This document shows, one piece after another, positions 3,501 through 55,720 of a stretch of 64,000 bases of DNA. The position numbers and the translations under genes are program-made. The stretch comes from Escherichia coli (GTDB lineage Bacteria > Pseudomonadota > Gammaproteobacteria > Enterobacterales > Enterobacteriaceae). The notes under the pieces were generated by a model that saw nothing but the letters and a program-made list of their open reading frames with translations, had not been told where the DNA came from and searched no databases. Location of the stretch: assembly GCF_003334815.1 (NCBI RefSeq), contig NZ_QOWO01000009.1; one strand, given 5' to 3'. Each line of letters opens with the position of its first letter. Position 1 is the stretch's first letter.

Positions 3501-4241
3501 ATGTTTTTTAACACCAAACATACAACAGCTTTATGCTTCGTAACCTGTATGGCTTTTAGTTCATCGTCTATTGCGGACATTGTCATTTCGGGTACTCGCG
3601 TAATATATAAAAGCGATCAAAAAAGTGTCAACGTACGTCTGGAAAATAAAGGGAATAACCCGTTGCTTGTCCAGAGTTGGTTAGATACTGGCGATGACAA
3701 CGCTGAGCCTGGCAGTATTACAGTCCCTTTTACTGCTACGCCGCCAGTATCGCGTATTGATGCCAAACGTGGGCAAACAATCAAATTAATGTACACAGCC
3801 AGCACCTCACTGCCTAAAGACAGAGAGAGCGTGTTCTGGTTTAACGTACTGGAAGTTCCACCAAAACCAGATGCAGAAAAGGTCGCGAATCAAAGCCTGC
3901 TGCAACTGGCATTTCGCACACGTATAAAACTTTTCTATCGCCCGGATGGATTGAAGGGAAATCCCTCTGAAGCCCCGTTAGCCCTGAAGTGGTTCTGGTC
4001 AGGTTCAGAAGGTAAGGCGTCATTACGAGTGACCAATCCAACCCCTTACTACGTCTCTTTTAGCAGTGGTGATTTAGAAGCTAGCGGTAAACGCTATCCG
4101 ATTGATGTGAAAATGATTGCACCATTTAGTGATGAGGTCATGAAAGTCAATGGCCTTAATGGCAAAGCGAATTCTGCAAAAGTGCATTTTTACGCCATTA
4201 ATGACTTTGGTGGCGCAATTGAAGGTAATGCCAGGCTGTAA
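3501..4241 (+). CDS. yadV: periplasmic fimbrial chaperone (PapD-like)
   Basis: 246-aa ORF with signal peptide and PapD-family chaperone motifs; sits between the pilin and usher genes. Confidence 0.9.
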   Translation: MFFNTKHTTALCFVTCMAFSSSSIADIVISGTRVIYKSDQKSVNVRLENKGNNPLLVQSWLDTGDDNAEPGSITVPFTATPPVSRIDAKRGQTIKLMYTASTSLPKDRESVFWFNVLEVPPKPDAEKVANQSLLQLAFRTRIKLFYRPDGLKGNPSEAPLALKWFWSGSEGKASLRVTNPTPYYVSFSSGDLEASGKRYPIDVKMIAPFSDEVMKVNGLNGKANSAKVHFYAINDFGGAIEGNARL

Positions 4242-4275
4242 TCAGGCAAGGATATAATTCCGCAGGAAGCATAGC

Positions 4276-6873
4276 GTGACTATAGAATATACTAAAAATT
4301 ATCATCATCTGACCCGTATCGCCACGTTTTGCGCGCTGCTGTATTGCAATACTGCTTTCAGTGCTGAACTCGTTGAATATGACCATACCTTCCTGATGGG
4401 GCAGAATGCATCTAATATTGATCTCAGCCGGTACAGTGAAGGTAACCCCGCTATACCGGGTGTTTACGACGTCAGTGTTTATGTAAACGACCAACCAATC
4501 ATTAACCAAAGTATTACATTTGTCGCAATTGAAGGAAAAAAGAACGCCCAGGCTTGTATCACATTAAAGAATTTATTGCAGTTTCATATTAATTCTCCCG
4601 ATATAAATAACGAAAAAGCCGTTCTGCTTGCCAGGGATGAAACGCTCGGCAATTGCCTCAATTTGACGGAAATTATCCCTCAGGCTTCTGTTCGTTATGA
4701 CGTTAACGATCAACGTCTGGATATAGACGTTCCTCAAGCCTGGGTAATGAAAAATTACCAAAACTATGTTGATCCATCGTTATGGGAAAACGGCATTAAT
4801 GCGGCCATGTTGTCATACAACCTCAACGGATATCATAGTGAAACCCCTGGTCGAAAAAATGAAAGCATTTATGCTGCATTTAACGGTGGGATGAATTTAG
4901 GTGCATGGCGACTGCGTGCCTCGGGCAACTACAACTGGATGACCGATTCTGGCAGTAATTATGATTTTAAGAATCGGTATGTTCAGCGTGATATCGCCTC
5001 GCTGCGTTCTCAACTCATTCTTGGTGAGTCTTATACGACGGGCGAAACCTTTGATTCCGTCAGTATCCGAGGCATTCGTTTATACAGTGACAGCCGCATG
5101 TTGCCTCCGACTTTAGCCAGCTTTGCGCCTATCATTCATGGCGTTGCCAATACCAACGCCAAAGTCACTATTACGCAAGGTGGCTATAAGATTTATGAAA
5201 CGACGGTGCCGCCAGGCGCTTTCGTCATTGATGATCTGAGTCCGTCAGGGTACGGCAGCGATCTTATTGTTACCATCGAAGAATCCGATGGCTCAAAGCG
5301 GACATTCTCGCAACCTTTCTCATCCGTTGTTCAAATGTTACGCCCTGGCGTTGGACGTTGGGATATTAGCGGCGGTCAGGTCTTAAAAGATGATATTCAG
5401 GATGAGCCTAATTTATTTCAAGCAAGCTACTACTACGGCCTGAATAACTATCTGACGGGTTATACCGGTATTCAGATAACCGATAATAACTATACCGCTG
5501 GTTTGTTAGGTCTTGGTCTGAATACTTCAGTTGGTGCATTTTCTTTCGATGTGACTCATTCCAATGTTCGTATCCCGGATGATAAAACATACCAGGGGCA
5601 AAGTTATCGTGTTTCCTGGAACAAGTTATTCGAAGAAACAAGTACTTCACTGAATATCGCGGCCTATCGCTATTCGACACAGAATTACCTTGGTCTTAAT
5701 GATGCACTAACTCTAATTGATGAAGTGAAACATCCCGAACAAGATCTTGAACCGAAATCCATGCGTAATTACTCACGCATGAAAAATCAGGTTACGGTCA
5801 GTATTAACCAACCGTTGAAATTTGAGAAAAAAGATTACGGTTCATTTTATCTTTCCGGAAGTTGGTCCGATTACTGGGCTTCCGGACAAAATCGTAGCAA
5901 TTACTCTATTGGCTACAGTAACAGTACATCCTGGGGCAGCTACAGTGTCAGTGCCCAGCGTTCATGGAATGAAGACGGCGACACTGACGATAGCGTTTAT
6001 CTTAGTTTCACCATTCCAATTGAAAAATTACTTGGCACTGAACAACGTACTTCAGGTTTCCAGAGTATTGATACTCAAATAAGCAGTGACTTTAAGGGTA
6101 ATAACCAACTCAACGTTAGCAGCAGTGGCTATAGCGATAACGCTCGCGTCAGTTATAGCGTGAATACTGGCTATACGATGAATAAAGCCAGCAAAGATTT
6201 GAGTTATGTTGGGGGTTATGCCAGCTATGAGTCACCATGGGGAACGCTGGCAGGTTCAATTTCTGCAAATAGCGATAACAGCCGTCAAGTTTCTCTCAGC
6301 ACCGACGGTGGTTTTGTATTGCATAGCGGTGGACTGACTTTCAGTAATGATAGTTTTAGCGACTCCGATACACTGGCGGTAGTTCAGGCTCCAGGTGCTC
6401 AAGGAGCGCGAATAAATTATGGCAACAGTACTATCGATCGATGGGGTTATGGTGTCACCAGCGCTCTTTCTCCTTATCATGAAAACCGTATCGCGCTGGA
6501 TATCAACGATCTTGAGAACGATGTTGAATTAAAAAGTACCAGTGCAGTAGCTGTACCGCGTCAGGGTTCAGTCGTCTTTGCTGATTTTGAAACCGTGCAA
6601 GGGCAATCAGCCATTATGAACATCACACGAAGTGATGGTAAAAATATTCCATTTGCTGCAGATATTTATGATGAGCAAGGCAATGTCATTGGTAATGTTG
6701 GACAGGGTGGACAAGCATTTGTTCGTGGTATTGAGCAGCAGGGAAATATCAGCATTAAATGGCTCGAACAAAGTAAACCCGTAAGTTGTCTTGCGCATTA
6801 TCAACAAAGCCCAGAAGCAGAAAAAATAGCACAATCTATTATTCTGAATGGAATTCGGTGTCAGATTCAGTAA
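4276..6873 (+). CDS. htrE: outer-membrane fimbrial usher (GTG start)
   Basis: 865-aa ORF, usher family, begins at GTG 4276; typical size and position in a chaperone-usher operon. Confidence 0.9.
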   Translation: MTIEYTKNYHHLTRIATFCALLYCNTAFSAELVEYDHTFLMGQNASNIDLSRYSEGNPAIPGVYDVSVYVNDQPIINQSITFVAIEGKKNAQACITLKNLLQFHINSPDINNEKAVLLARDETLGNCLNLTEIIPQASVRYDVNDQRLDIDVPQAWVMKNYQNYVDPSLWENGINAAMLSYNLNGYHSETPGRKNESIYAAFNGGMNLGAWRLRASGNYNWMTDSGSNYDFKNRYVQRDIASLRSQLILGESYTTGETFDSVSIRGIRLYSDSRMLPPTLASFAPIIHGVANTNAKVTITQGGYKIYETTVPPGAFVIDDLSPSGYGSDLIVTIEESDGSKRTFSQPFSSVVQMLRPGVGRWDISGGQVLKDDIQDEPNLFQASYYYGLNNYLTGYTGIQITDNNYTAGLLGLGLNTSVGAFSFDVTHSNVRIPDDKTYQGQSYRVSWNKLFEETSTSLNIAAYRYSTQNYLGLNDALTLIDEVKHPEQDLEPKSMRNYSRMKNQVTVSINQPLKFEKKDYGSFYLSGSWSDYWASGQNRSNYSIGYSNSTSWGSYSVSAQRSWNEDGDTDDSVYLSFTIPIEKLLGTEQRTSGFQSIDTQISSDFKGNNQLNVSSSGYSDNARVSYSVNTGYTMNKASKDLSYVGGYASYESPWGTLAGSISANSDNSRQVSLSTDGGFVLHSGGLTFSNDSFSDSDTLAVVQAPGAQGARINYGNSTIDRWGYGVTSALSPYHENRIALDINDLENDVELKSTSAVAVPRQGSVVFADFETVQGQSAIMNITRSDGKNIPFAADIYDEQGNVIGNVGQGGQAFVRGIEQQGNISIKWLEQSKPVSCLAHYQQSPEAEKIAQSIILNGIRCQIQ

Positions 6874-6889
6874 CTACAAGGGACGTCAA

Positions 6890-7459
6890 ATGATAAAAAC
6901 AACGCCACATAAAATAGTGATACTGATGGGAATATTATTATCACCCTCAGTATTTGCAACGGATATTAATGTAGAGTTTACAGCCACTGTCAAAGCGACA
7001 ACCTGTAACATCACACTTACTGGTAATAACGTCACGAATGATGGCAATAATAACTACACATTGAGAATCCCTAAGATGGGTCTGGATAAGATCGCGAATA
7101 AAACGACAGAATCTCAGGCTGATTTTAAACTGGTTGCCAGTGGGTGCAGCAGTGGCATCAGTTGGATTGATACCACTCTGACCGGAAATGCATCATCAAG
7201 CTCACCTAAGCTTATTATACCGCAGTCTGGTGATTCATCTTCGACGACAAGTAATATCGGTATGGGTTTCAAAAAACGGACTACTGATGATGCCACTTTC
7301 CTTAAACCTAACAGTGCGGAAAAGATACGCTGGAGCACAGACGAGATGCAGCCCGATAAGGGTCTTGAAATGACCGTTGCGCTACGTGAAACAGATGCAG
7401 GGCAAGGTGTACCGGGGAATTTTCGTGCACTGGCGACGTTTAATTTCATCTATCAATAA
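6890..7459 (+). CDS. yadM: fimbrial minor subunit-like protein
   Basis: ORF 6848..7459 in frame; likely true start at the internal Met (MIKTTPHK...) preceding a signal peptide, giving 189 aa. Confidence 0.85.
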   Translation: MIKTTPHKIVILMGILLSPSVFATDINVEFTATVKATTCNITLTGNNVTNDGNNNYTLRIPKMGLDKIANKTTESQADFKLVASGCSSGISWIDTTLTGNASSSSPKLIIPQSGDSSSTTSNIGMGFKKRTTDDATFLKPNSAEKIRWSTDEMQPDKGLEMTVALRETDAGQGVPGNFRALATFNFIYQ

Positions 7460-7470
7460 GAAGGATAATT

Positions 7471-8076
7471 ATGATGACATTTAAAAATTTACGTTATGGA
7501 TTATCCAGCAGTGTCGTTTTGGCTGCCTCATTGTTCAGCGTACTCTCTTATGCGGCAACAGACAGTATTGGACTGACCGTTATTACTACTGTAGAAATGG
7601 GTACTTGTACCGCTACATTAGTAAATGACTCTGATCAGGACATTTCTGTTGTTGATTTTGGTGATGTATATATTTCTGAAATCAATGCCAAGACCAAAGT
7701 AAAAACATTCAAACTCAAATTCAAAGACTGTGCGGGTATCCCCAATAAAAAAGCGCAAATAAAATTAACCAAGCGAGCCACATGCGAGGGAACTGCTAAT
7801 GACGGTGCGGGGTTTGCAAATGGTTCCACAGCCGCAGATAAAGCAAGTGCTGTCGCCGTTGAAGTCTGGAGCACTGTAACTCCGGCAACAGGGAGTGCAA
7901 CACAATTTAGCTGTGTAACACCAGCATCACAAGAGGTAACAATCTCCACTGCAGCCAATGCGGTCGTTTATTATCCGATGAGTGCACGCCTGGTCGTGGA
8001 AAAAAATAAAACCGTAAACAATGTCACTGCGGGTAAGTTTTCTGCACCAGCCACATTTACAGTAACCTATAACTAA
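7471..8076 (+). CDS. yadL: fimbrial minor subunit-like protein
   Basis: 201-aa ORF with signal peptide; pilin-like. Confidence 0.85.
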   Translation: MMTFKNLRYGLSSSVVLAASLFSVLSYAATDSIGLTVITTVEMGTCTATLVNDSDQDISVVDFGDVYISEINAKTKVKTFKLKFKDCAGIPNKKAQIKLTKRATCEGTANDGAGFANGSTAADKASAVAVEVWSTVTPATGSATQFSCVTPASQEVTISTAANAVVYYPMSARLVVEKNKTVNNVTAGKFSAPATFTVTYN

Positions 8077-8102
8077 CAGACTTACAGATTCAGGAACTAT
8101 AT

Positions 8103-8699
8103 ATGCATCCCACTCAACGTAAGCTGATGAAGAGAATAATTCTGTTTCTGTCATTACTGTTTTGCATCGCCTGTCCAGCCATTGCTGGACAGGATATTGA
8201 CCTTGTTGCCAATGTAAAAAACAGCACCTGCAAAAGCGGAATCAGTAACCAGGGTAATATTGATCTTGGCGTCGTTGGGGTGGGATATTTTTCAGGTAAT
8301 GTTACTCCTGAAAGTTATCAACCAGGTGGAAAAGAGTTCACTATCACTGTATCCGACTGTGCATTACAGGGAACTGGCGATGTGCTAAATCAGTTACATA
8401 TTGATTTTAGAGCCCTTAGCGGTGTCATGGCTGCTGGCTCTAGGCAAATATTTGCTAATGAAATTTCGTCAGGAGCAAGTAATGTAGGAGTAGTTATATT
8501 TTCTACTCAGGATTCGGCGAATACATTCAATGTTCTTAATGCTTCAGGCGGATCTCGTTCCGTTTATCCAGTAATGTCGGATGACATGAATGGTTCATCC
8601 TGGAAATTTAGCACCCGAATGCAAAAAATCGATCCTGCATTGAGTGTTACATCTGGTCAACTTATGAGCCATGTGTTAGTGGATATTTACTACGAATAA
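8103..8699 (+). CDS. yadK: fimbrial minor subunit-like protein
   Basis: 198-aa ORF with signal peptide; pilin-like. Confidence 0.85.
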   Translation: MHPTQRKLMKRIILFLSLLFCIACPAIAGQDIDLVANVKNSTCKSGISNQGNIDLGVVGVGYFSGNVTPESYQPGGKEFTITVSDCALQGTGDVLNQLHIDFRALSGVMAAGSRQIFANEISSGASNVGVVIFSTQDSANTFNVLNASGGSRSVYPVMSDDMNGSSWKFSTRMQKIDPALSVTSGQLMSHVLVDIYYE

Positions 8700-8748
8700 C
8701 AAACAAAAACAGCGCAAACCATAACAATAAAGAAACATTGGAGTAAAA

Positions 8749-9987
8749 ATGAAGACTATCTTCAGGTACATTCTTTTTTTAGCACTGTATTCTTGTTGTA
8801 ATACAGTCAGTGCATATACAAGTTTTATTGTGGGAAATAATGCAGGAGTTGATAACTATCGAGGCCCCTCCACTGCCGCACAGATGACCTTTAATTACAC
8901 ATCAACAGCAAGCAACTTGGTTTTTTATAAACCCACGCAGCTCGGCCCGACTGGGGTAAAAATGTACTGGTCATACCTGGATACAGGTACCGGTGGTGGT
9001 ATTCTTTACTGCAATACATCTGGCAGAGCGAATCCTGGTCCAATAACTATTGAAAATGCCATGGTCTATTCAGGTAAAGATTATGGCGGACATAAACTAT
9101 TTAATACATCTGTTCCTGGTCTGTATTACACCATGTTAATATCAAGGGTCTGGTCTGCATACGATACAATAACTGACATTCAATCGCCAGGAATCTATAT
9201 CGGAGATCCTTCCAACCAAGAATTTTTCTTTTCCGTCACAGACAGCGATCTACAAACTAAGGGTTGCAACAAAGCAGACGACTACGATAAGTTTTGGGCT
9301 ATTGGTGGTATAGTACACAACATAACTGTTGAATTTTATACAGATACTAATTTCGATCCTACACTTAATCAGCAAGTCCAGTTATCCAGTTCATCAAATT
9401 ACCTTTATTCGTTTAAGGCCTACAGTCCTGGTACAAAAGTTGTAGATCACAGCAACCACATTTATGTCAATTTCACACTGAATAATGTCAAATTAACCTT
9501 ACCAACATGTTTTACCTCCATACTTACCGGGCCATCAGTCAATGGTTCAACGGTTAGAATGGGAGAATATAGCTCTGGGACAATTAAAAATGGCGCTTCA
9601 CCTGTTCCCTTTGATATCTCGCTTCAGAATTGTATTCGTGTGCGTAATATTGAAACAAAACTCGTCACTGGAAAAGTAGGTACTCAAAACACACAACTGC
9701 TTGGTAATACGCTTACTGGAAGCACTGCCGCCAAAGGCGTTGGCGTACTCATTGAAGGTTTAGCAACCAGTAAAAATCCGCTAATGACATTAAAACCTAA
9801 TGATACGAATTCTGTTTATATAGATTATGAAACCGAAGATGACACCTCCGATGGGGTTTACCCTAATCAAGGTAACGGCACATCACAGCCTCTTCATTTC
9901 CAGGCAACATTAAAGCAAGACGGGAATATTGCTATCGAACCCGGCGAATTTAAAGCCACCAGTACTTTCCAGGTAACCTATCCCTGA
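8749..9987 (+). CDS. yadC: putative fimbrial tip adhesin (two-domain adhesin-pilin)
   Basis: 412-aa ORF with signal peptide; the large size and terminal position in the operon are typical of tip adhesins. Confidence 0.85.
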
Positions 9988-36685: not shown

Positions 36686-36845
36686 GGGTTATTCCTTATC
36701 TATCTAATAACGTTGAGTTTTCTGGAACCTGTCCCATTGAACTCTCGCCGGAAAGCTCAATAAGACAGGTTCTACGTTTAGTTGCCGCGCTTTTATATGC
36801 GCTTGATTTACAACATCTTCTGGATAATTTTTACCAGAAAAATCA

Positions 36846-39566: not shown

Positions 39567-40421
39567 TTACACCAACGCCCCGTAAATCGTCAGTAGTGCA
39601 ATCACCACCACGACCACGAACGAGGTTTTCTTCGCCATTGAAACCGCTGCCTTCGGCGTCTCCACCTTATCGACATGCGGTTCACGCGCCAGAGAGAACT
39701 GCGCCAGACGCGTTAACACCTGATACTGCGAAGTATGGAAATCACCCAGCGAAGCAAACCAGGCCGGTAACGCTTTCTCACCATGACCGATCAAGGCATA
39801 TACCACACCCGCAAGACGAACCGGCACCCAATCCAGTACATGAAGCACGGCATCAATGCCGGACTGTAAACGATGATGCGGCGTCTGATATCGCGCCAGC
39901 CAGTATTGCCATGCACGCAAAAACGCATACCCCATCAGCGTAACGGGTCCCCAGGTTCCCCCCACAATCAGCCAGAACAGCGGTGCAAGATAAAAACGAA
40001 AGTTAATCCACAGCAATGCATTTTGCAGCTCACGCAAATACTCACGTTCGTCGCAGCCTGCCGGGACGCCGTGAATCATGGTGAGTTCGCCAGCCATCGT
40101 GGCACGGGCATGGCTATCATTACGTGAAGCAGCTGTCAGATAAGCATGATAATGAAGACGAACTTTACCTGCGCCAATACACAGCAAACCAATCAGCAGC
40201 CACACCAGTAGCGTGGGAACGTTGAACAATACTCCCTGCAATGCGCGTAACAGTAAAAAAGTCACGCCCATCGCAATAATGGTCATGCCTAACGTGCGCC
40301 CGAGAGAAAAATGTTTCACCCGCCGAAAGAACGCTTCAAGACGATGATCAAGCTGCCAGTGCTCGCCCAACTTAAACAGGCGCTCGAAAATTAACACCAG
40401 TAAGGTTGTAAATAGCGTCAT
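39567..40421 (-). CDS. ampE: inner-membrane protein AmpE (ampicillin-resistance-locus membrane protein)
   Basis: ORF 39567..40460; likely start is the internal Met ([16 protein letters not shown]), whose ATG overlaps the ampD stop (ATGA); 284 aa. Confidence 0.9.
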
Positions 40422-40969
40422 GTTGTCTCCTTGCTGACCAGCACACGAAACCGTGCCCAATCAAATGCAGGACCGGGATCGGTTTTCCGATCCGGCGCAA
40501 TATCACAATGGCCCGTCATGTTTTTAGCGATATCCGGATAGCAATCAATCAGTGCCCGCGTAACCGCCGCAAGCTGTTGATACTGCGCATCGGTATACGC
40601 CAGCGTATCGGTGCCTTCAAGCTCAATCCCAATAGAAAAATCATTGCAGCGTTCGCGCCCCTGATACTGAGAGACTCCCGCATGCCATGCACGTTTATCG
40701 AAAGGAACATACTGGACTATTTCACCATCACGGCGAATCAAACAGTGAGCGGAGACGCGCAAATGGGCGATCTCAGCAAAGAAAGGATGTGCCTGCGGAT
40801 CAATAGTTCCAGTGAATAATGCGTCGATCCACGGACCGCCAAACTCGCCTGGCGGCAGGCTAATATTGTGCACCACCAGCAGGGTGGGTGTTTCGTCATC
40901 CGGGCGGCAATCGTAATGTGGTGAGGGAACGCGGCGCGCGCCAACCAGCCACCCCTGTTCTAACAACAT
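40418..40969 (-). CDS. ampD: 1,6-anhydro-N-acetylmuramyl-L-alanine amidase (cytosolic peptidoglycan recycling)
   Basis: 183-aa ORF of the amidase_2 family matching AmpD. Confidence 0.95.
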
Positions 40970-40996
40970 GCAGGATCTCCTTATATGTGGTGCTAA

Positions 40997-41950
<954 letters not shown>

Positions 41951-42152
41951 TAGTTGACAGATTTATCCGCTCCATCGCGGGCGGATAATCTCCCCTTCCC
42001 CAACTTTCTTCGTAACGCCTCGCAAATTTCTTGTCTTTCGCTGCAACGAAATAAAAAACCTCGGAATCTGCTTTCCCGTTTCGTTTTTTGCCCCTCGCCT
42101 GTGCTGATGGCGTTTGCCAAAGTAGCGCCAACCAAATCAAGGAGCGAAACAG

Positions 42153-42593
42153 ATGGACAAGCAACGCGGTTTTACACTTATCGAACTGATGGTGGTTATT
42201 GGCATCATTGCCATTTTAAGCGCCATTGGTATTCCCGCTTATCAAAACTACCTGCGCAAAGCCGCACTCACCGACATGCTACAAACCTTTGTGCCTTACC
42301 GTACCGCCGTAGAGTTGTGCGCGCTGGAACATGGTGGATTAGATACCTGCGACGGTGGCAGCAATGGCATTCCCTCGCCTACCACCACCCGCTATGTTTC
42401 AGCCATGAGTGTGGCAAAGGGCGTGGTGTCGCTGACCGGGCAAGAAAGTCTCAATGGGCTAAGCGTCGTCATGACACCGGGTTGGGATAACGCAAACGGC
42501 GTCACCGGCTGGACGCGCAACTGCAATATTCAAAGTGACAGCGCATTGCAGCAAGCCTGCGAAGATGTCTTCCGCTTTGATGACGCCAACTAA
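42153..42593 (+). CDS. ppdD: type IV prepilin (major pilin) with N-terminal class III signal (GFTLIELMVV)
   Basis: 146-aa ORF with the characteristic prepilin leader MDKQRGFTLIELMVVIGIIAILSAIGIPAY. Confidence 0.93.
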   Translation: MDKQRGFTLIELMVVIGIIAILSAIGIPAYQNYLRKAALTDMLQTFVPYRTAVELCALEHGGLDTCDGGSNGIPSPTTTRYVSAMSVAKGVVSLTGQESLNGLSVVMTPGWDNANGVTGWTRNCNIQSDSALQQACEDVFRFDDAN

Positions 42594-42602
42594 GGAGCGG
42601 CA

Positions 42603-43988
42603 ATGAATATTCCACAGCTCACTGCCCTGTGTCTGCGTTATCATGGAGTCTTGCTGGATGCCAGCGAAGAGGTGGTTCATGTTGCGGTAGTCGATGCACC
42701 TTCGCATGAGCTACTGGACGCATTGCATTTCGCTACCACCAAACGTATTGAGATCACCTGCTGGACGCGCCAACAAATGGAAGGTCACGCCAGTCGCACA
42801 CAACAGACATTGCCCGTAGCTGTTCAGGAGAAGCATCAGCCCAAAGCAGAGTTGCTAACTCGAACGTTACAATCTGCGCTGGAACAACGCGCGTCTGATA
42901 TTCATATCGAACCAGCGGACAATGCCTACCGCATCCGCTTGCGTATCGACGGCGTATTGCATCCTTTACCGGATGTTTCACCGGATGCCGGAGTCGCATT
43001 AACCGCCAGATTAAAAGTGCTGGGAAACCTGGATATTGCGGAACATCGCCTGCCGCAGGACGGGCAATTCACTGTCGAACTGGCAGGAAACGCCGTCTCA
43101 TTTCGTATTGCGACCTTACCATGTCGGGGTGGTGAAAAGGTGGTATTAAGGTTGTTACAGCAGGTGGGTCAGGCACTGGATGTCAACACGCTTGGAATGC
43201 AGCCGTTACAACTGGCGGACTTTGCTCATGCCTTGCAACAACCACAGGGACTGGTGCTGGTAACTGGCCCTACCGGCAGCGGCAAAACGGTCACGCTTTA
43301 TAGTGCCCTGCAAAAGCTGAATACCGCTGACATTAATATTTGTAGCGTCGAAGATCCAGTTGAGATCCCCATAGCCGGACTAAACCAGACGCAAATCCAT
43401 CCGCGTGCCGGACTCACCTTTCAGGGCGTTTTGCGTGCGTTATTGCGCCAGGATCCTGACGTCATCATGATCGGAGAGATCCGCGATGGCGAAACAGCAG
43501 AGATCGCTATTAAAGCGGCGCAAACTGGTCACCTGGTGTTGTCTACCCTACACACTAATTCCACCTGCGAAACGCTGGTACGTTTACAGCAAATGGGGGT
43601 CGCCCGCTGGATGCTATCATCGGCGCTTACGCTGGTAATAGCCCAGCGTCTGGTACGCAAACTTTGCCCACATTGTCGCCGGCAGCAAGGGGAGCCCATC
43701 CACATTCCAGACAATGTATGGCCATCGCCGCTGCCCCACTGGCAGGCACCCGGTTGTGTACATTGCTACCACGGTTTTTATGGTCGTACGGCCTTATTTG
43801 AAGTTCTGCCCATAACGCCGGTCATTCGTCAGCTTATTTCCGCTAATACCGACGTTGAATCGCTGGAAACGCACGCACGACAGGCGGGTATGCGTACGCT
43901 TTTTGAAAACGGCTGCCTGGCCGTAGAGCAAGGCTTAACCACCTTTGAAGAGTTAATCCGCGTACTGGGGATGCCGCATGGCGAGTAA
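42603..43988 (+). CDS. hofB: type IV pilus assembly ATPase (GspE/PilB family)
   Basis: 461-aa ORF with Walker A (GPTGSGKT) and C-terminal tetracysteine motif (CPHC...CVHC). Confidence 0.93.
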   Translation: MNIPQLTALCLRYHGVLLDASEEVVHVAVVDAPSHELLDALHFATTKRIEITCWTRQQMEGHASRTQQTLPVAVQEKHQPKAELLTRTLQSALEQRASDIHIEPADNAYRIRLRIDGVLHPLPDVSPDAGVALTARLKVLGNLDIAEHRLPQDGQFTVELAGNAVSFRIATLPCRGGEKVVLRLLQQVGQALDVNTLGMQPLQLADFAHALQQPQGLVLVTGPTGSGKTVTLYSALQKLNTADINICSVEDPVEIPIAGLNQTQIHPRAGLTFQGVLRALLRQDPDVIMIGEIRDGETAEIAIKAAQTGHLVLSTLHTNSTCETLVRLQQMGVARWMLSSALTLVIAQRLVRKLCPHCRRQQGEPIHIPDNVWPSPLPHWQAPGCVHCYHGFYGRTALFEVLPITPVIRQLISANTDVESLETHARQAGMRTLFENGCLAVEQGLTTFEELIRVLGMPHGE

Positions 43989-45180
43989 GCAACTCTGGCG
44001 CTGGCATGGCATAACCGGCGACGGCAATGCGCAAGATGGGATGCTATGGGCAGAGAGCCGTACTTTACTGCTTATGGCACTACAGCAACAGATGGTTACC
44101 CCACTAAGCCTGAAGCGAATCGCCATCAATTCTGCGCAGTGGCGAGGAGATAAAAGCGCGGAAGTCATTCATCAACTGGCGACGCTACTCAAAGCAGGGT
44201 TAACGCTTTCTGAAGGGCTGGCTCTGCTGGCGGAACAGCATCCCAGTAAGCAATGGCAAGCGTTGCTGCAATCGCTGGCGCACGATCTCGAACAGGGCAT
44301 TGCTTTTTCCAATGCCTTATTACCCTGGTCAGAGGTATTTCCGCCGCTCTATCAGGCGATGATCCGCACGGGTGAACTGACCGGTAAGCTGGATGAATGC
44401 TGCTTTGAACTGGCGCGTCAGCAAAAAGCCCAGCGTCAGTTGACCGACAAAGTGAAATCAGCGTTACGTTATCCCATCATCATTTTAGCGATGGCAATCA
44501 TGGTGGTTGTGGCAATGCTGCATTTTGTTCTGCCGGAGTTTGCCGCTATCTATAAGACCTTCAACACCCCACTACCGGCACTAACGCAGGGGATCATGAC
44601 GCTGGCAGACTTTAGTGGCGAATGGAGCTGGCTGCTGGTGTTGTTCGGCTTTCTGCTGGCGATAGCCAATAAGTTGCTGATGCGCCGACCGACCTGGCTT
44701 ATAGTGCGGCAGAAATTGCTGTTACGCATCCCGATTATGGGTTCACTGATGCGGGGACAAAAACTCACGCAGATCTTTACGATTCTGGCGCTGACACAAA
44801 GTGCAGGCATTACTTTTTTACAGGGCGTAGAGAGCGTCAGAGAAACAATGCGCTGCCCGTACTGGGTGCAACTTCTGACACAAATCCAGCACGATATCAG
44901 TAACGGTCAACCCATCTGGCTGGCGCTAAAAAATACCGGTGAGTTTAGCCCGCTCTGTTTGCAATTAGTGAGAACAGGAGAGGCATCCGGCTCTCTGGAT
45001 CTCATGTTAGACAACCTCGCCCATCATCATCGGGAAAACACAATGGCGCTGGCGGATAACCTCGCAGCCTTACTGGAACCGGCGTTGCTGATCATAACGG
45101 GAGGAATTATTGGTACGCTGGTGGTGGCAATGTATCTGCCAATTTTCCATTTAGGCGATGCGATGAGTGGGATGGGATAA
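43978..45180 (+). CDS. hofC: type IV pilus inner-membrane platform protein (GspF/PilC family)
   Basis: 400-aa ORF with duplicated GspF domains; overlaps the hofB end by 11 bp. Confidence 0.93.
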   Translation: MASKQLWRWHGITGDGNAQDGMLWAESRTLLLMALQQQMVTPLSLKRIAINSAQWRGDKSAEVIHQLATLLKAGLTLSEGLALLAEQHPSKQWQALLQSLAHDLEQGIAFSNALLPWSEVFPPLYQAMIRTGELTGKLDECCFELARQQKAQRQLTDKVKSALRYPIIILAMAIMVVVAMLHFVLPEFAAIYKTFNTPLPALTQGIMTLADFSGEWSWLLVLFGFLLAIANKLLMRRPTWLIVRQKLLLRIPIMGSLMRGQKLTQIFTILALTQSAGITFLQGVESVRETMRCPYWVQLLTQIQHDISNGQPIWLALKNTGEFSPLCLQLVRTGEASGSLDLMLDNLAHHHRENTMALADNLAALLEPALLIITGGIIGTLVVAMYLPIFHLGDAMSGMG

Positions 45181-45208
45181 CGCTGGCGTGTTGCTCCACG
45201 CCAGCGTT
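45181..45208. terminator. hairpin between convergent hofC and guaC (cgctggcgtg-ttgctc-cacgccagcg)
   Basis: Perfect 10-bp stem read in sequence; U-tracts are weak. Confidence 0.35.
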
Positions 45209-45214
45209 GGGAGA

Positions 45215-46258
45215 TTACAGGTTGTTGAAGATGCGGTTTTCTTGTTCCTGCACACGAATAAACGTGGTGCGCTTGGTCAGCTCTTTCAGGCGTGAAGCCC
45301 CAACGTATGTACAAGCTGAACGCAGGCCGCCCAAAATATCTCGCGCGGTATTTTCAACCGGGCCTCGCAGCGGCAGCTTAACGGTTTTACCTTCTGCTGC
45401 GCGATATTCCGCAACGCCGCCAACGTGACGTTTCATCGCAGACTCGGAGCTCATGCCGTAGAACAGCATAAATTTCTCGCCGTTCTCCTCAACGATGCGA
45501 CCGCCGCTCTCTTCGTGGCCCGCCAGCATGCCGCCAAGCATGACGAAATCGGCACCGCCGCCAAAGGCTTTCGCCACATCGCCCGGCGTGGTGCAGCCAC
45601 CATCGCTGACGATCATTCCGCCCAGACCGTGCGCAGCATCGGCACATTCGATTACCGCAGAAAGTTGCGGATAACCGACGCCTGTTTTGACGCGAGTTGT
45701 ACAAACAGAACCTGGGCCAATGCCAACTTTAACGATATCGGCACCTGAGAGGATAAGCTCCTCACACATTTCACCAGTCACTACGTTACCAGCACAAATG
45801 GTTTTGGTCGGCCACGCTTCACGCGCTTTCGCAACGAACTGCACGAAGTGTTCGGAATAACCATTCGCCACGTCAATACAAACGAAGTTTAATGCCGGGT
45901 TCAGGTCGAGAATCTGTTTAGTTTTTTCGAAATCCGCATCAGACGTACCGGTAGAAACCATCACATGTTTCAGCACATCAGCGGAAGAATTGTTGATAAA
46001 CGCTTGCCACTCTTCGACAGAATAGTGTTTATGCACAGCAGTCAAAATATCAAAAGAAGCCAGCGCAGAGGCCATAGAAAATGTGCCTACGGTGTCCATA
46101 TTTGCGGCGATAATCGGCACGCCGGACCAGCTCTGACCTGAATGTTTGAAGGTGAATTGACGTTCCAGTTCAACATCGGAACGGCTTTTAAGAGTGGAGC
46201 GTTTAGGGCGGATGAGAACGTCTTTAAAACCTAACTTCAGATCTTCTTCAATACGCAT
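45215..46258 (-). CDS. guaC: GMP reductase
   Basis: 347-aa ORF in the IMPDH/GMPR family ([29 protein letters not shown]...). Confidence 0.95.
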
Positions 46259-46482
46259 GTGCGGATTCCTGGGGTTAATGGCTATAAGGGTAAGAGCGCA
46301 ACTCCAGTGACGCTATCATACGCACTAATCAATGCGGCGCAAGACTGCGAAATTGTCTTTTTTTACGCTACAATCCCATAAATTTACCTGGTAAATAGTG
46401 AGCGAACGTTTCATCAATTTCGCTTTCGTGCACTCATTTTTAACGTTTTGATAATCATGATGAATTCCCGGGAATATAAATT

Positions 46483-47103
46483 ATGAGGTATATAGTTGCC
46501 TTAACGGGAGGCATTGGCAGTGGCAAGAGTACCGTTGCCAATGCGTTTGCTGATCTCGGAATTAACGTCATTGATGCCGATATTATTGCGCGTCAGGTGG
46601 TTGAACCAGGTGCACCTGCGCTACATGCCATTGCTGATCACTTTGGCGCTAACATGATTGCTGCTGATGGAACATTGCAGCGCCGGGCCTTGCGCGAGCG
46701 GATCTTCGCCAACCCGGAAGAGAAAAACTGGCTTAACGCCCTGCTGCATCCGCTGATTCAGCAAGAGACGCAACACCAGATCCAGCAAGCTACTTCCCCC
46801 TATGTACTGTGGGTTGTGCCATTGCTGGTAGAAAACTCACTGTATAAAAAAGCGAATCGAGTGCTTGTGGTGGATGTCAGCCCAGAAACGCAACTTAAGC
46901 GCACCATGCAGCGCGATGATGTAACTCGCGAGCATGTCGAACAAATCCTTGCTGCTCAGGCAACGCGCGAAGCCCGCCTTGCCGTGGCAGATGACGTCAT
47001 TGATAATAACGGCGCACCGGATGCTATCGCATCGGATGTTGCCCGCCTGCACGCACACTATTTGCAGCTTGCGTCGCAGTTTGTCTCACAGGAAAAACCG
47101 TAA
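46483..47103 (+). CDS. coaE: dephospho-CoA kinase
   Basis: 206-aa ORF with P-loop (GGIGSGKST). Confidence 0.95.
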
Positions 47104-47846
47104 TGCAGACCCAGGTCCTTTTTGAACATCCACTAAATGAAAAAATGCGTACATGGCTGCGCATTGAGTTTTTGATTCAGCAACTCACCGTTAATTTACC
47201 CATCGTTGACCACGCTGGCGCGCTGCATTTCTTCCGTAATGTCAGTGAATTACTGGATGTTTTCGAGCGCGGCGAAGTCCGCACTGAGCTGTTGAAAGAA
47301 CTTGACCGGCAGCAACGTAAACTCCAGACCTGGATTGGCGTGCCTGGCGTGGACCAGAGCCGTATTGAAGCATTAATTCAGCAGTTAAAAGCGGCGGGGA
47401 GCGTATTAATTTCCGCGCCGCGTATCGGGCAATTTCTGCGTGAAGATCGTTTGATTGCTCTGGTGCGTCAGCGACTGAGCATCCCAGGCGGCTGTTGCAG
47501 CTTTGATTTACCTACATTGCACATTTGGCTGCATCTACCCCAGGCGCAGCGCGACAGCCAGGTAGAAACCTGGATTGCCAGCCTGAACCCGCTCACCCAG
47601 GCACTTACCATGGTGCTGGATTTAATTCGCCAGTCGGCCCCCTTCCGTAAACAAACCAGCCTGAATGGTTTTTATCAGGATAACGGTGGCGATGCCGACT
47701 TGCTGCGCCTGAATCTGTCGCTCGATTCACAGCTTTATCCGCAAATTTCCGGACATAAGAGCCGTTTTGCCATTCGTTTTATGCCGCTGGACACTGAAAA
47801 CGGACAGGTACCGGAACGTCTGGATTTCGAACTGGCCTGTTGCTAA
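47103..47846 (+). CDS. zapD: cell division factor ZapD (FtsZ-associated)
   Basis: 247-aa ORF; start overlaps the coaE stop (TAATG). Confidence 0.9.
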
Positions 47847-48059: not shown

Positions 48060-48268
<209 letters not shown>

Positions 48269-48272
<4 letters not shown>

Positions 48273-48671: not shown

Positions 48672-48701
48672 TAAAAAAGGCGCAGAATCCTGCGCCTTTT
48701 A
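48672..48701 (-). terminator. hairpin with U-tract downstream of secA (minus strand: aaaaggcgcag-gattc-tgcgcctttttt)
   Basis: GC stem followed by T-run on the minus strand between secA and mutT; could act as a partial terminator or attenuator. Confidence 0.4.
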
Positions 48702-48717
48702 CTTCAACAGTTAGCTT

Positions 48718-51423
48718 TTATTGCAGGCGGCCATGGCACTGCTTGTATTTTTTACCAGAACCGCACGGGCAAGGATCGTTACGTCCTACTTTGCGCTCTC
48801 CGGTTTGCGCCGCCAGTGCAGCTGCGGCTGCAGAGTCGTCATCCTGATGGCTAAGCTGCTGCATTTGCGCTAAACGCTCGGCTTCCATACGACGCTGTTG
48901 TTCCAGCTCCTCAACCTCTTCAGGCATACGTACCTGAACTTTGCTCAGCGTACTGATAACTTCATATTTCAACGACTCCAGCATCGCTGCAAACATGGAG
49001 AACGATTCACGTTTGTATTCCTGCTTCGGATCTTTCTGTGCGTAGCCACGCAGGTGGATACCCTGACGCAGATAGTCCATCGCTGCCAGGTGCTCTTTCC
49101 ACAGGGAGTCAAGCGTTTGCAGCATGACGCCTTTCTCGAAGTGACGCATCATCTCAGCACCAACCACTTCTTCTTTACGCTGATACACTTCGATGGACTG
49201 CGCCAGAATGCGCTCACGCAGCGTCTCTTCATGCAGTTCTGGTTCTTTATCCAGCCACTCGGCAATTGGCAAATCGAGGTCGAAATCGTTCTTCAGACGT
49301 TCCTGCAGCCCCGGAATATCCCACATTTCTTCCAGCGACTGTGGTGGAATGTAGGCATCAATGGTCGCTTTGAACACATCTTCACGAATGCTGTTAATGG
49401 TTTCGCTCACATCGCTGACATCCAACAGTTCGTTACGCTGGGAGTAAATGGCGCGACGCTGATCGTTAGCCACGTCATCATATTCCAGCAGTTGCTTACG
49501 AATGTCGAAGTTACGGCTTTCAACTTTACGCTGGGCGTTGGCAATCGCTTTAGTCACCCACGGGTGTTCAATGGCTTCGCCTGGCTTCATACCCAGTTTA
49601 CGCATCATGCCGGATACTCGGTCGGAAGCAAAAATACGCATCAGCGCATCTTCCATCGACAGGTAGAAACGGGAAGAACCAGCATCCCCCTGACGACCAG
49701 AACGACCGCGCAACTGGTTATCGATACGACGGGATTCGTGACGCTCGGTACCGATGATATGCAGGCCACCTGCTTCCAGTACCGCATCGTGACGTACCTG
49801 CCAGTCGGCTTTAATTTTTTCAATTTGCTCTGCGGTCGGATTTTCCAGCGCGGCAACTTCTGCCTGCCAGCTACCACCGAGCACAATATCTGTACCACGA
49901 CCCGCCATATTGGTCGCGATAGTCACCGCAGCCGGATAACCTGCCTGAGCAACAATCGCCGCTTCGTTGGCGTGGAATTTGGCGTTCAGGACGTTGTGCT
50001 TAATACCGGCTTTGGTCAGTTCGTTTGACACCAGCTCCGATTTTTCGATGGAGATAGTACCCACCAGCACCGGCTGGCCTTTCGCAGTACGTTCTTTGAT
50101 ATCTTCAATGATCGCCTGAATTTTTTCCGCTTCAGTCATGTAGACCAGGTCCGGCAGATCTTTACGAATCATTGGACGGTTGGTCGGAACAACGACGGTA
50201 TCCAGCTTGTAGATTGAGCTAAATTCGAAAGCTTCGGTATCAGCAGTACCGGTCATCCCCGCCAGTTTTTCATACAGACGGAAGTAGTTCTGGAAGGTGA
50301 TCGAAGCCAGCGTTTGGTTTTCGTTCTGGATCTGCACACCTTCTTTCGCTTCCACAGCCTGGTGCAGACCATCGGACCAGCGACGGCCCTGCATGGTACG
50401 ACCGGTGTGTTCGTCAACGATGATAACTTCACCATCTTTAACGATGTAGTCGACGTCACGGGTAAACAGCGCATGAGCGCGCAGCGCCGCCGTTACGTGG
50501 TGCATCAGCATGATGTTGGCCGGAGAGTACAGAGACTCCCCTTCATCCATGATGCCCTCTTTCACCAGCAGTTCTTCAATCAGCACCAGACCACGTTCGG
50601 TCAGGTTCACCTGGCGAGATTTTTCGTCCACCGAGAAGTGGCCTTCGCCCTGGAAGGTTTCGGAGTCTTCTTTTTCCTGACGGATCAGGTGCGGAATAAT
50701 TTTATTCACGCGTTTATACATTTCCGAGCTGTCTTCTGCCGGGCCGGAAATGATCAGCGGTGTACGCGCTTCATCGATCAGGATGGAGTCCACTTCGTCC
50801 ACCAGCGCATAGTGCAGTTTACGCTGTACACGTTCTTCAGGGCTGAACGCCATGTTGTCGCGCAGGTAGTCAAAGCCGTATTCGTTGTTCGTACCGTAAG
50901 TGATGTCAGCTGCGTAAGCTTCGCGCTTTGCCGGTGCTGGCATGCCCGGCAGGTTGATACCGACAGTCAGGCCAAGGAATTCAAACAGCGGACGGTTGTT
51001 TTCGGCGTCACGTTGCGCCAGGTAGTCGTTGACGGTAACTACGTGCACGCCTTTACCGGTTAGTGCGTTCAGGTAAGCAGGCAGCGTTGCGGTCAGGGTT
51101 TTTCCTTCACCGGTACGCATTTCGGCGATGCAGCGTTCGTTAAGAACCATACCGCCGAGTAACTGAACGTCGAAGTGACGCATACCAAAGACGCGCTTAC
51201 TTGCCTCACGTACCACGGCGAAAGCTTCCGGGATCAGATTTTCCAGCACTTCGCCTTTTTCCAGACGTGCACGAAACTCTGCGGTTTTCCCTTTCAGTTC
51301 TTCGTCGGAGAGTTTTTCCATCTCCGGTTCCATGGCATTGATGATGTTGACCACTTTGCGCATCCGGCGCAGGGTGCGATCGTTACGACTACCGAAAACT
51401 TTAGTTAACAATTTGATTAGCAT
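48718..51423 (-). CDS. secA: preprotein translocase ATPase SecA
   Basis: 901-aa ORF with DEAD-like motor domains and C-terminal zinc-binding [14 protein letters not shown]. Confidence 0.97.
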
Positions 51424-53245: not shown

Positions 53246-54397
53246 TTAATCAGCTTGCTTACGCAGGAATGCTGGGATATCCAGATAATCCGGCTCTTTC
53301 GCAGTTTGCGGCGCATTGTCATTCACGACTTTAGCAACCGGCTTCTGCTCCTGGGTCAGCGGAGCCATCCCATGCTGCTGGTAGCGATCCATCACTGGCT
53401 GCTGAACCTGCTTATTGGTCACCAGAGTGATTTCAGGACGTTTGTCCATGCCGATACCTGTCGCAACAACGGTTACGCGCAGCTCGTCATTCATATCCGG
53501 GTCAAGAGAAGTACCGATAACCACAGTCGCGTTGTCGGAAGCAAATGCACGGATGGTGTTACCTACCGTTTCGAACTCATCCAGACGCAGGTCGAAGCCC
53601 GCCGTGATGTTAACCAGCACGCCGCGCGCGCCAGACAGGTCGATATCTTCCAGCAGCGGAGAAGAGATAGCCATTTCAGCAGCTTCTTCCGCACGGTCTT
53701 CACCGCTCGCCACGCCAGAACCCATCATTGCGTAGCCCATCTCAGACATTACGGTGCGTACGTCTGCAAAGTCCACGTTCATCAAACCCGGACGAGTAAT
53801 CAGTTCAGCGATACCTTGCACAGCGCCTTTCAGTACATCGTTCGCTGCGCCAAACGCATCCAGCAGGGAGATACCGCGGCCCAGAACTTTCAGCAGTTTG
53901 TCGTTCGGGATAGTGATCAGAGAGTCCACATGCTTGGACAGTTCAGTGATCCCCTGCTCCGCGAATGCCATACGCTTCTTGCCTTCAAAGTTGAAAGGCT
54001 TAGTGACGACAGCAACGGTCAGGATACCCAAATCTTTTGCCACTTCAGCGACGACTGGTGCTGCACCTGTACCGGTACCACCACCCATACCCGCAGCAAT
54101 AAAGACCATGTCTGCACCTTCCAGCGCCGCACGCAATGCATCGCGATCCTCATCAGCCGCATTGCGGCCAACTTCTGGATTAGCGCCAGCGCCCAGTCCT
54201 TTGGTGATACCGCTACCGATTTGAATCGTCTGTCCAACCGCTGTTTTACGCAGCGCTTGTGCATCGGTATTTACCGCGAAGAATTCAACACCTTCAATGC
54301 GCTCGCGCACCATGTGTTCAACAGCATTACCGCCGCCGCCGCCGACGCCGATGACTTTAATCACCGCGTCATTGGTAAGTTCCATTGGTTCAAACAT
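53246..54397 (-). CDS. ftsZ: cell division GTPase FtsZ
   Basis: 383-aa ORF with the tubulin signature GGGTGTG. Confidence 0.98.
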
Positions 54398-54457
54398 AGT
54401 TTCTCTCCGATTTGTGCCTGTCGCCTGAGGCCGTAATCATCGTCGGCCTCATAAAAA

Positions 54458-55720
54458 TTAAAACTCTTTTCGCAGCCAACTATTGAGTCGCTTGATCCAC
54501 GAGCCAACTGATGCTGTAACACGTTTTTCTACTTCAGCTTCACCGTTAAGATGTGACTCTTTCCCATAGTGAAGCAATCCCACCGCCGTCGAATAATACG
54601 GCTCCTGAGCATAATCCGTTAAACCGGTAATGTTCAGCGGCGCGCCGATACGCACTTGCGTATGAAACACGCGCTGAGCACAGGCTGCAAGACCTTCGAT
54701 CTGCGCTGCGCCACCGGTTAATACAATGCCTGCCGCCAGGTGATGTTTAACCCCTTGTTGGCGAAGCTTTTCCTGCAACTGCAATATCTCTTCGTTGACC
54801 AGGTTGAGCAGCTCGGTATAGCGCGGCTCGATCACCTCTGCCAGTGTCTGACGTTGCAGACTCCGTGGCGGACGACCACCTACGCTCGGCACTTCCACGC
54901 TCTCATCTTTTCCAACGATGGAACCCAGCGCACAACCGTGGCGAACTTTAATCGCTTCGGCGTCGCTTGGCGGCGTGCCAAAGGCGTAAGCGATATCACT
55001 GGTCACGACATTGCCAGCATAAGGAATTACCTTAGTGTGGCGCAATGCCCCACCGGTATAAACGGCGATATCCATTGTACCACCACCGATATCGACGACG
55101 CAGACACCCAGTTCACGTTCATCTTCCGTCAATACCGAATAACTTGATGCCAGTCCGGCAAATATCAGTTGGTCAACTTTCAGCCCACAACGTTCAACCG
55201 CTTTGACGATGTTTTTCGCCATATCGTTGTGACATGTGATCAGGTGCACTTTTGCCTGCATCCGCACGCCCGAAAGTCCTACCGGATTCTTGATCCCTTC
55301 CTGATAGTCAATCGCATACTCTTGCGGGATCACATGCAGCACACGATGCTCATCGCGCACACGCACCGATTTCGCGGTATGGACGACGTTTTCCACATCT
55401 TCTTGCGTCACTTCTTCTTCAGAAATAGGCACCATACCAATTTCATTCTGGCAGCTGATGTGCTTACCAGAAAGCGCCAGATATACCGAAGAGATCTGAC
55501 AATCTGCCATCAATTCTGCCTGGTCAATGGCGCGTTGTACGCACTTGACCACGGATTCGAGGTCGTTCACCCCGCCTTTATCCATACCACGCGACGGGCA
55601 GCTGCCCACGCCAATGATATTGACCATACCGTCGGGCAGAACTTCCCCTACTAAAGCGGCAACCTTCGCGGTACCAATCTCCAGTCCTACTACCAGTTTT
55701 CTGTCCGTCGCCTTGATCAT
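54458..55720 (-). CDS. ftsA: cell division protein FtsA (actin-like ATPase)
   Basis: 420-aa ORF matching FtsA. Confidence 0.97.

Follow-up and report, generated by a model that had tools for sequence, protein, structure and literature searches.

The ppdD-hofB-hofC type IVa pilus operon of Escherichia coli K-12: a predicted promoter map and a tentative link to CytR

Among the described systems closest to the ppdD-hofB-hofC genes of Escherichia coli are two pilus loci. The hcpABC genes of enterohemorrhagic E. coli (EHEC) O157:H7, which specify the hemorrhagic coli pilus (HCP), are the same locus at the same genomic position, and the filament structure of the EHEC pilus has been solved (6GV9). 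On Minca medium, EHEC makes HCP pili of PpdD/HcpA (PMC2920817). The pilABCD operon of Haemophilus influenzae is likewise a pilin-ATPase-platform operon located behind a CRP-S site and induced by Sxy and CRP. It includes the prepilin peptidase gene pilD, unlike ppdD-hofBC, and its host differs in lacking CytR and in being naturally transformable. The sxy gene of H. influenzae also induces E. coli ppdD (PMC1635313). Here we analyze a 64,000-nucleotide stretch of E. coli DNA (contig NZ_QOWO01000009.1 of assembly GCF_003334815.1; hereafter, the window), in which the region 42153-45180 is, with near certainty, the ppdD-hofB-hofC operon of E. coli K-12, which supplies a pilus/DNA-uptake machine with its major type IVa pilin, its extension ATPase and its inner-membrane platform, and which is transcribed with Sxy and cyclic AMP (cAMP)-CRP. 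In the mechanism that we propose, the operon is intact and functional in principle, and would be transcribed only when Sxy (TfoX) and cAMP-CRP act jointly at a weak, non-canonical CRP-S site (42006-42027); the prepilin would be cleaved after Gly6 by a distant prepilin peptidase (gspO or pppA), and pilus assembly would then draw on other members of the same Sxy regulon, namely the minor pilins (ppdAB-ygdB-ppdC) and the alignment-secretin complex HofMNOP/HofQ.

Positions 40202-47202 of the window are 100% identical to the reverse complement of MG1655 positions 112500-119500 (NC_000913.3; MG1655 position = 159702 - window position), and the remainder of the window is colinear with a K-12-like laboratory strain at 99.99% identity. 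The three open reading frames (ORFs), all on the + strand and flanked by nadC and guaC, are b0108, b0107 and b0106 of MG1655, and they lie exactly where a preliminary description of this DNA had placed them (Table 1). Only 9 nt separate ppdD from hofB, and hofB overlaps hofC by 11 nt; read from the sequence, this spacing is an operon layout, and the overlap suggests translational coupling of hofB and hofC. The nadC stop codon ends at 41950, making 41951-42152 the entire nadC-ppdD intergenic region. At the other end of the locus, an inverted repeat (45181-45206) fills the gap between hofC and the convergent guaC, with no T-run on either side, and probably constitutes a shared 3' hairpin or terminator of hofC and guaC, its part in termination being presumptive. 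In E. coli 74-2, a broiler-chicken isolate (NZ_CP050044.1), the segment from the nadC 3' end to guaC matches in two pieces, and an IS903B-family transposase is annotated among the features under the split match, in what appears to be a rare natural disruption of the locus.

Protein identities were assigned using NCBIfam equivalog models with curated cut-offs, together with Pfam domains. All three products scored above the cut-offs of their respective models: NF007862 for PpdD (269 bits, cut-off 138), NF007755 for HofB (823 bits, cut-off 617) and NF007861 for HofC (661 bits, cut-off 401). PpdD also matched the Pfam N_methyl (E 5e-10) and Pilin (E 6e-4) domains and TIGR02532 (35.9 bits, cut-off 16.3), and presents a class III signal peptide (MDKQRG/FTLIELMVV) with a short leader of basic character, Gly at -1 followed by Phe at +1, Glu5 and a hydrophobic N-terminal helix. 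Its residues 7-146 match chain positions 1-140 of the EHEC pilus structure (PDB 6GV9, E 3e-91), with PDB 6GMS also matched, and the mature protein contains His54 and cysteines 50, 60, 118 and 130, corresponding to the pairs C50-C60 and C118-C130; the roles of these disulfides and of H54 have been addressed elsewhere (bioRxiv 10.1101/2021.04.14.439816). HofC is composed of two T2SSF domains (PF00482; residues 64-186 and 269-388). The equivalog scores, the Pfam domains and the match to 6GV9 bear out the identities of pilin, ATPase and platform protein put forward in the preliminary description.

HofB combines a T2SSE domain (PF00437, E 1e-146) with a weak N-terminal MshEN match, and contains a Walker A motif (GPTGSGKT, 222), an Asp box (DPVE, 251), a Walker B motif (VIMIGEIRD, 287), a His box (HTNS, 317) and a tetracysteine motif (CPHC/CVHC, at 355 and 385). 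Its score against the PilB equivalog TIGR02538 was 485.8 bits, below the cut-off of 675.65, with an alignment covering only positions 160-561 of the 564 in the model, and its score against the GspE equivalog was 458 bits, below the cut-off of 630. We assign HofB to a distinct, N-terminally shorter enterobacterial subfamily (NF007755), predicted to be PilB-like in its working. RefSeq/PGAP names hofB 'type II secretion system protein GspE' ('gspE'); because HofB falls under both the GspE and the PilB equivalog cut-offs, this label is a family-level name and no evidence of a secretion role. Taken at face value, the PGAP name and the matches of HofB and HofC to GspE and GspF models (E 1e-137 and 1e-78) would make hofB and hofC type II secretion components that serve secretion rather than a pilus, but we give this interpretation very little credence: HofC also remains under the GspF equivalog cut-off (264 vs 424), as HofB does under that of GspE, HofB scores slightly higher on PilB (486), both genes are co-transcribed with a type IVa pilin of solved filament structure, the Gsp components of K-12 are encoded at separate loci, and Sxy co-regulates the locus with hofMNOPQ.

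The remaining parts of the machine are encoded elsewhere. Across the 64 kb, the RefSeq annotation for a near-identical strain includes no gene for a prepilin peptidase, a secretin, a PilMNOP-type protein or a minor pilin. In MG1655, the prepilin peptidase genes gspO and pppA are found at 3.466 Mb and 3.114 Mb, hofMNOPQ at 3.519-3.523 Mb and ppdAB-ygdB-ppdC at 2.962-2.964 Mb, and the same genome holds a full type IVa pilus component set once distant loci are counted. The preliminary description had rightly placed the peptidase, secretin and alignment genes outside the window; its term 'incomplete' should not be read as a defect, since dispersed component loci are the normal enterobacterial layout and no sign of a defective machine. 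After Sxy induction, K-12 yields processed PpdD, and its DNA uptake is hofQ-dependent (PMC3330819). Elsewhere in the window, the product of yacC (22785-23132, + strand) is a 'pilotin-like' lipoprotein related to PulS/OutS (NF037975, 197 bits; weak GspS match), with no secretin gene nearby.

Of 5426 complete E. coli genomes, 5424 contain the locus. In the Enterobacterales loci compared, which range from Escherichia to Yersinia, Serratia and Dickeya, the order ampD-nadC-ppdD-hofB-hofC-guaC is kept wholly or largely with very few exceptions. In comparison with E. albertii, the ratio of nonsynonymous to synonymous substitution rates (dN/dS) is 0.042 for ppdD, 0.076 for hofB and 0.060 for hofC, with 0.011-0.054 for the flanking housekeeping genes. 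The locus is under strong purifying selection, and because the dN/dS values of its three genes are low, a decaying remnant is excluded. The idea that ppdD-hofBC is a cryptic locus in decay, and silent in the laboratory for that reason, has several observations in its favor: as stated in the preliminary description, expression is low or undetectable in K-12 under standard conditions (PMC1635313, PMC2649431), none of 72 ECOR strains made PpdD, no prepilin peptidase or secretin is linked, and identity across genera is 64-77% for HofB and 55-70% for HofC, against 83-94% for NadC and GuaC. Nonetheless, besides their near-universal presence and dN/dS of 0.04-0.08, the ORFs are intact and keep their functional motifs, the regulatory site is conserved, the locus can be induced and its PpdD processed, and a near-identical locus makes pili in EHEC. 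Decay is thereby refuted for practical purposes, and we attach a negligible probability to it.

Across the Enterobacteriaceae, sequence identity decreases from PpdD (78-92%) to HofB (64-77%) and HofC (55-70%). In most type IV pili the pattern is reversed, with the pilin less conserved than its ATPase and platform protein. Luna Rico et al. (2019), as relayed in bioRxiv 10.1101/2021.04.14.439816, had already noted how highly PpdD is conserved.

The preliminary description had suggested that 41951-42152 may hold the regulatory input to the operon, and published work agrees with this. Cameron and Redfield (2006; PMC1635313) observed weak but specific binding of CRP to a ppdD promoter fragment in electrophoretic mobility-shift assays (EMSA), and reported that Sxy raises ppdD expression 90-fold, with an absolute requirement for CRP and cAMP; the inducible promoter for which the preliminary description proposed a test upstream of ppdD was hence already on record. 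The primers of that study map to 41939-41960 and 42048-42069 of the window, so that the fragment bound by CRP corresponds to 41939-42069. A search of the upstream region for CRP-S sites, also suggested in the preliminary description, returned TTCGTAACGCCTCGCA at 42009-42024 as the only TGCGA-N6-TCGCA-like match in the intergenic region. The encompassing 22-mer (42006-42027) falls within the EMSA fragment, and its promoter-proximal half is a perfect TGCGA on the bottom strand. When ~230 bp upstream of ppdD were scanned in the window and in 24 other Enterobacterales, the best CRP-S match lay at -130 to -146 from the ppdD ATG in 23 of the 25 genomes (binomial 2e-19), and the Serratia bockelmannii upstream region presented a perfect 10/10 site. 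Sequence match and positional conservation place the predicted ppdD CRP-S site at 42006-42027. Its asymmetric form agrees with the description of E. coli CRP-S sites by Søndberg et al. (TGCGA-N6-TTCCA; PMC6728893), who also provided genetic evidence of direct CRP-Sxy contact and of class I-type activation.

An alignment of this region from 16 Enterobacteriaceae (window coordinate = 42002 + column) resolves its invariant columns into separate blocks: the CRP-S site, cTGcAAc (42041-47), a GAA...TC dyad, a T-run, CTCG (42094-97), TG-CA-A-T (42115-23) and the Shine-Dalgarno sequence. No sigma-70 consensus promoter scored in 41951-42152, and no Rfam family matched 41900-42250, even at E <= 1. The TG-CA-A-T block resembles an extended -10 element (TGnCAAAGT), and in more distant Enterobacterales TATCCT or TAGACT-like hexamers are found at a similar distance from the ATG. 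From this element we infer a ppdD transcription start near 42130 with a 23-nt leader, and such a start would therefore position the CRP-S site at ~-113.5 and the second dyad at ~-60.5. That second dyad (42059-42080) retains invariant GAA and TC in the 16 genomes, as well as its 53-bp spacing from the CRP-S site; it matches the CRP consensus poorly in E. coli (4/10) and at 6-7 of 10 positions in Enterobacter, where its right half is TCACA or TCACG, and is possibly a second, weak CRP/CRP-S-type site. We also observed that GGAA-N6-TTCC resembles two copies of the 'weak' CRP-S half-site, and that, in the ppdA promoter of Yokenella, an identical GGAATCTGCTTTCC stands at the position of the CRP-S site. 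Directly after nadC, the inverted repeat at 41963-41988, which forms a stem in the RNA fold of 41945-42100 and is not followed by a T-run, is probably the nadC 3' hairpin and may act as its terminator.

The ppdA promoter follows the same plan, with a CRP-S site, TGCAAC 17 nt after its core, and CTCGTC 17 nt before a -10-like CATACT. The conserved CATACT ends 6 nt before the ATG and no Shine-Dalgarno sequence is present, an arrangement that predicts a leaderless mRNA for this minor-pilin operon and a CRP-S position of ~-111.5.

Several other candidates in the ppdD intergenic region were considered and rejected. For a 5' untranslated region structure masking the ribosome-binding site, RNAalifold returned only a 7-pair helix (-0.6 kcal/mol) with almost no covariation, and the pairing of GUUUCGUUUUUUG with the Shine-Dalgarno region in the single-sequence fold gave z = -1.5; this idea was dropped because the extended -10 model puts the T-run upstream of the transcription start. 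The hairpin and T-run at 42062-42090 were flagged as a terminator or attenuator on the minus strand only, with hits at chance level (6 vs 4.3 expected), and the plus-strand stem has only 4 bp, with 3 compensatory vs 5 mismatched lineages. If TAAAAA (42052-57) were the -10 element, the CRP-S site would lie at -47.5, which suits neither class of CRP promoter, and the hexamer is less conserved than neighboring elements; with CTGCAA as -35 and a -10 at 42064-69, the resulting GAAnCn has no constant essential -7 T in other species. Compared by eye, no sigma-54, sigma-E, sigma-32 or sigma-28 promoter fits the conserved blocks.

Certain points weigh against Sxy- and CRP-dependent transcription of a DNA-uptake pilus from this promoter. 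The distal (left) half of the CRP-S site, TTCGT, is poor in E. coli, and the predicted position at ~-113.5 falls beyond the class I range of -62 to -100 expected by Cameron and Redfield (PMC1635313), the core-promoter assignment and this distance both being predictions from conservation alone. No natural signal is known to switch on sxy in E. coli (PMC3330819). DNA uptake by K-12 is very weak, and the role of the machine may be DNA uptake, adhesion or both. One could argue from this barely detectable uptake, from the fact that EHEC makes HCP only on Minca medium, where the pilus mediates adherence and cytokine release, and from the poor kidney colonization by a hofQ mutant of uropathogenic E. 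coli (UPEC), that the locus serves host adhesion and virulence instead of DNA uptake, in response to signals other than Sxy and CRP. We regard this as a possible but unfavored explanation: it is compatible with a Sxy/CRP-controlled uptake pilus, as one machine might serve both ends; the EHEC promoter, CRP-S site included, is essentially identical; and the literature examined documents no other regulator.

The same comparison bears on the silence of the K-12 locus. PpdD, HofB and HofC of K-12 differ from those of EHEC Sakai by 1, 4 and 10 amino acids, respectively, and the two promoters differ at 8 of 202 positions, none of which lies in the CRP-S site, the octamer described below, the -10 element or the other conserved blocks. 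Pili have been seen in EHEC, as the preliminary description had said of homologues in pathogenic strains (PMC2920817), and not in K-12 or UPEC (PMC2649431). As far as its sequence can tell, the locus provides no cis-acting reason for the difference in piliation between K-12 and EHEC.

Between the two ppdD dyads, the conserved TGCAA falls within a sequence resembling the operator of CytR, an octamer (AATGCAAC/GTTGCATT) that occurs as inverted or direct repeats adjoining CRP sites (PMC3454398). The ppdD octamer matches 6/8 positions and has only a degenerate adjacent copy, with 12 nt between it and the distal 22-mer and 11 nt between it and the proximal one; the T, G, A and A of its TGCAA do not vary among the 16 aligned genomes. 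In eight E. coli promoters of the Sxy regulon, we counted 7 CytR-type octamers downstream of the best CRP-S-like core against 0.24 expected (P 7e-9), distributed over five of the eight promoters, and 5 instances of TGCAAC against 0.05 expected (P 3e-9). Each of these octamers is read on the coding strand and begins 5-6 nt or 15-16 nt downstream of its CRP-S core, and the sxy, ycaI and yifB promoters have none at these offsets. The distance to the CRP 22-mer is 1 nt for the first octamers of hofM and yhgH (both 8/8 perfect) and 2 nt for those of ppdA and smf, and all four thus satisfy the published limit of <=5 nt between octamer and CRP site (PMC3454398). In the non-coding thyA-ppdA spacer, the TGCAA of both repeats is invariant across seven genera, over a background identity of 66%. 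The CRP sites of deoP2, at -40.5 and -93.5, are 53 bp apart, like the ppdD dyads. The 31-bp gap between the ppdD 22-mers is also within the inter-CRP-site distances of CytR-regulated promoters (PMC3454398).

These observations led us to consider, with considerable reservation, that CytR may join CRP and Sxy directly, as a third partner, at the ppdD, ppdA, hofM, yhgH/comF and smf/dprA promoters. In such a scheme, which we judge possible yet doubtful, CytR would bind between the two CRP-type sites of ppdD and beside the CRP-S sites of other competence genes, stabilizing or anti-activating CRP and tying the pilus and DNA uptake to nucleosides. The fixed offsets and single strand of the octamers after five of eight CRP-S cores, the adherence of hofM, yhgH, ppdA and smf to the 5-nt rule, and the invariance of TGCAA at ppdD and ppdA speak for this proposal, as does the positive control of V. 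cholerae pilA and comEA by CytR, on which their expression depends through an unknown mechanism (PMC4581735). Conversely, the motif first came to notice in the very sequences that were then counted, so the statistics are partly post hoc; motifs of CytR are weak and degenerate; at hofM, yhgH and smf, the octamers lie inside neighboring coding regions, where conservation is uninformative; three of the promoters have no octamer at these offsets and ppdD has only one good copy; and the TGCAA repeats could alternatively be a core-promoter feature or an Sxy contact. The conservation of the hofM octamers was rejected as independent support because they lie within mrcA codons. According to PMC4581735, there is no known natural promoter at which CytR stabilizes CRP at a weak site, and in the searchable literature, with subscription journals outside the search, we found no paper that connects CytR with ppdD or with the CRP-S promoters of E. 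coli. Were the proposal true, it would provide a natural example of CytR action at a weak CRP site and a mechanism for the CytR requirement in V. cholerae competence, and nucleoside (cytidine) signaling would be connected to the silent E. coli pilus; if the octamers are real operators, both the silence of the E. coli competence pilus and the role of CytR in Vibrio competence become testable by simple genetics.

Two side observations concern the same promoters. The published hofM CRP-S site and octamers fall within the opening codons of mrcA (PBP1a), which runs on the opposite strand, and the divergent mrcA-hofM region retains 92% identity between genera in which the HofM proteins are only 51-69% identical. 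Upstream of cytR in MG1655, TGCGAGGCGGATCGAA forms a CRP-S-like 16-mer ~140 bp before the start codon, which may be due to chance.

The window also contains a complete Yad chaperone-usher fimbrial operon (2819-9987, + strand; yadN, yadV, htrE, yadM, yadL, yadK, yadC), in which the usher gene htrE is intact (865 aa), whereas the near-identical strain KMS2001 has it annotated as a pseudogene because of an internal stop. Small-RNA matches, taken at the Rfam gathering threshold, are listed in Table 1 with the features of the locus.

Table 1. Coordinates of the ppdD-hofB-hofC genes, of known and predicted elements around them, of CytR-operator-like octamers and of small-RNA matches in the window.
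Feature	Position	Strand	Description
ppdD	42153-42593	+	146 aa; major type IVa prepilin
hofB	42603-43988	+	461 aa; PilB/GspE-family assembly ATPase
hofC	43978-45180	+	400 aa; PilC/GspF-family inner-membrane platform protein
Inverted repeat TTATCCGC...GCGGATAA	41963-41988	+	directly after nadC; stem in RNA fold
Predicted CRP-S site TTCTTCGTAACGCCTCGCAAAT	42006-42027	+	22-mer; core 42009-42024, centre 42016.5, ~136 bp before ppdD start codon
CytR-operator-like octamer GCTGCAAC	42040-42047	+	consensus AATGCAAC; its TGCAAC starts 17 nt after CRP-S core
Dyad cGGAA-TCTGCT-TTCCc	42059-42080	+	GGAA-N6-TTCC at 42063-76; centre 42069.5, 53 bp from CRP-S centre
CTCGCC	42094-42099	+	conserved hexamer at -35 position of predicted promoter; CTCG (nearly) invariant
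Predicted extended -10 TGcCAAAGT	42115-42123	+	invariant at TG (-15/-14), A(-11), A(-9), T(-7)
ppdD Shine-Dalgarno AAGGAG	42139-42144	+	3' end 8 nt before ATG; GGAG invariant in 16-genome alignment
Inverted repeat CGCTGGCGTG-ttgctc-CACGCCAGCG	45181-45206	unassigned	perfect, 10 bp, GC-rich; read from sequence
hofM octamers		coding strand	AATGCAAC, then ACTGCAAG
yhgH octamer		coding strand	AATGCAAC
ppdA octamers		coding strand	TTTGCAAC, then CCTGCAAC
smf octamer		coding strand	TATGTAAC, then CTTGCAAA (5/8, under counting threshold)
tp2	36688-36801	+	Rfam; upstream of pdhR
naRNA4, two copies	48076-48153, 48193-48269	-	Rfam; between yacG and mutT
STnc40	48673-48742	-	Rfam; between mutT and secA
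PssrA-family match	54389-54478	-	Rfam; dcw cluster region

Taken together, the genes, their distant partners, the silence of the locus in K-12, its activity in EHEC and its Sxy/CRP-S promoter are all already documented, and the practical value of the ppdD-hofBC finding lies in correct annotation. What is new here is the refined promoter map, as predicted from sequence, and the still speculative CytR lead.

Beyond EHEC and H. influenzae, the locus can be compared with two further pilus systems and with the CytR regulon. The pilA/pilBCD genes of Pseudomonas aeruginosa encode the same protein families, with HofB under the PilB cut-off and no pilD linked to ppdD-hofBC. Transcription of P. aeruginosa pilA is under the control of PilS/PilR and sigma-54, and ppdD differs in having no sigma-54 promoter. 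The pilABCD competence pilus genes of Vibrio cholerae, compared through the literature alone, share with ppdD-hofBC the dependence on TfoX (Sxy) and CRP, and the need of pilA for CytR parallels the CytR-like octamers at ppdD, while V. cholerae adds chitin and quorum-sensing inputs. In the literature examined, ppdD is absent from the known members of the CytR regulon. The CytR-regulated promoters of E. coli (deoP2, udp, cdd, nupG, tsx and cytR) differ from that of ppdD in driving genes for nucleoside transport and catabolism, in having canonical CRP sites and in being repressed by CytR, whereas the sites flanking the ppdD octamer are of CRP-S type or very weak. At the same time, related octamers stand beside CRP sites in these promoters and near candidate CRP sites at ppdD, with similar spacing between the sites, and the CRP sites are weak and depend on a partner protein.

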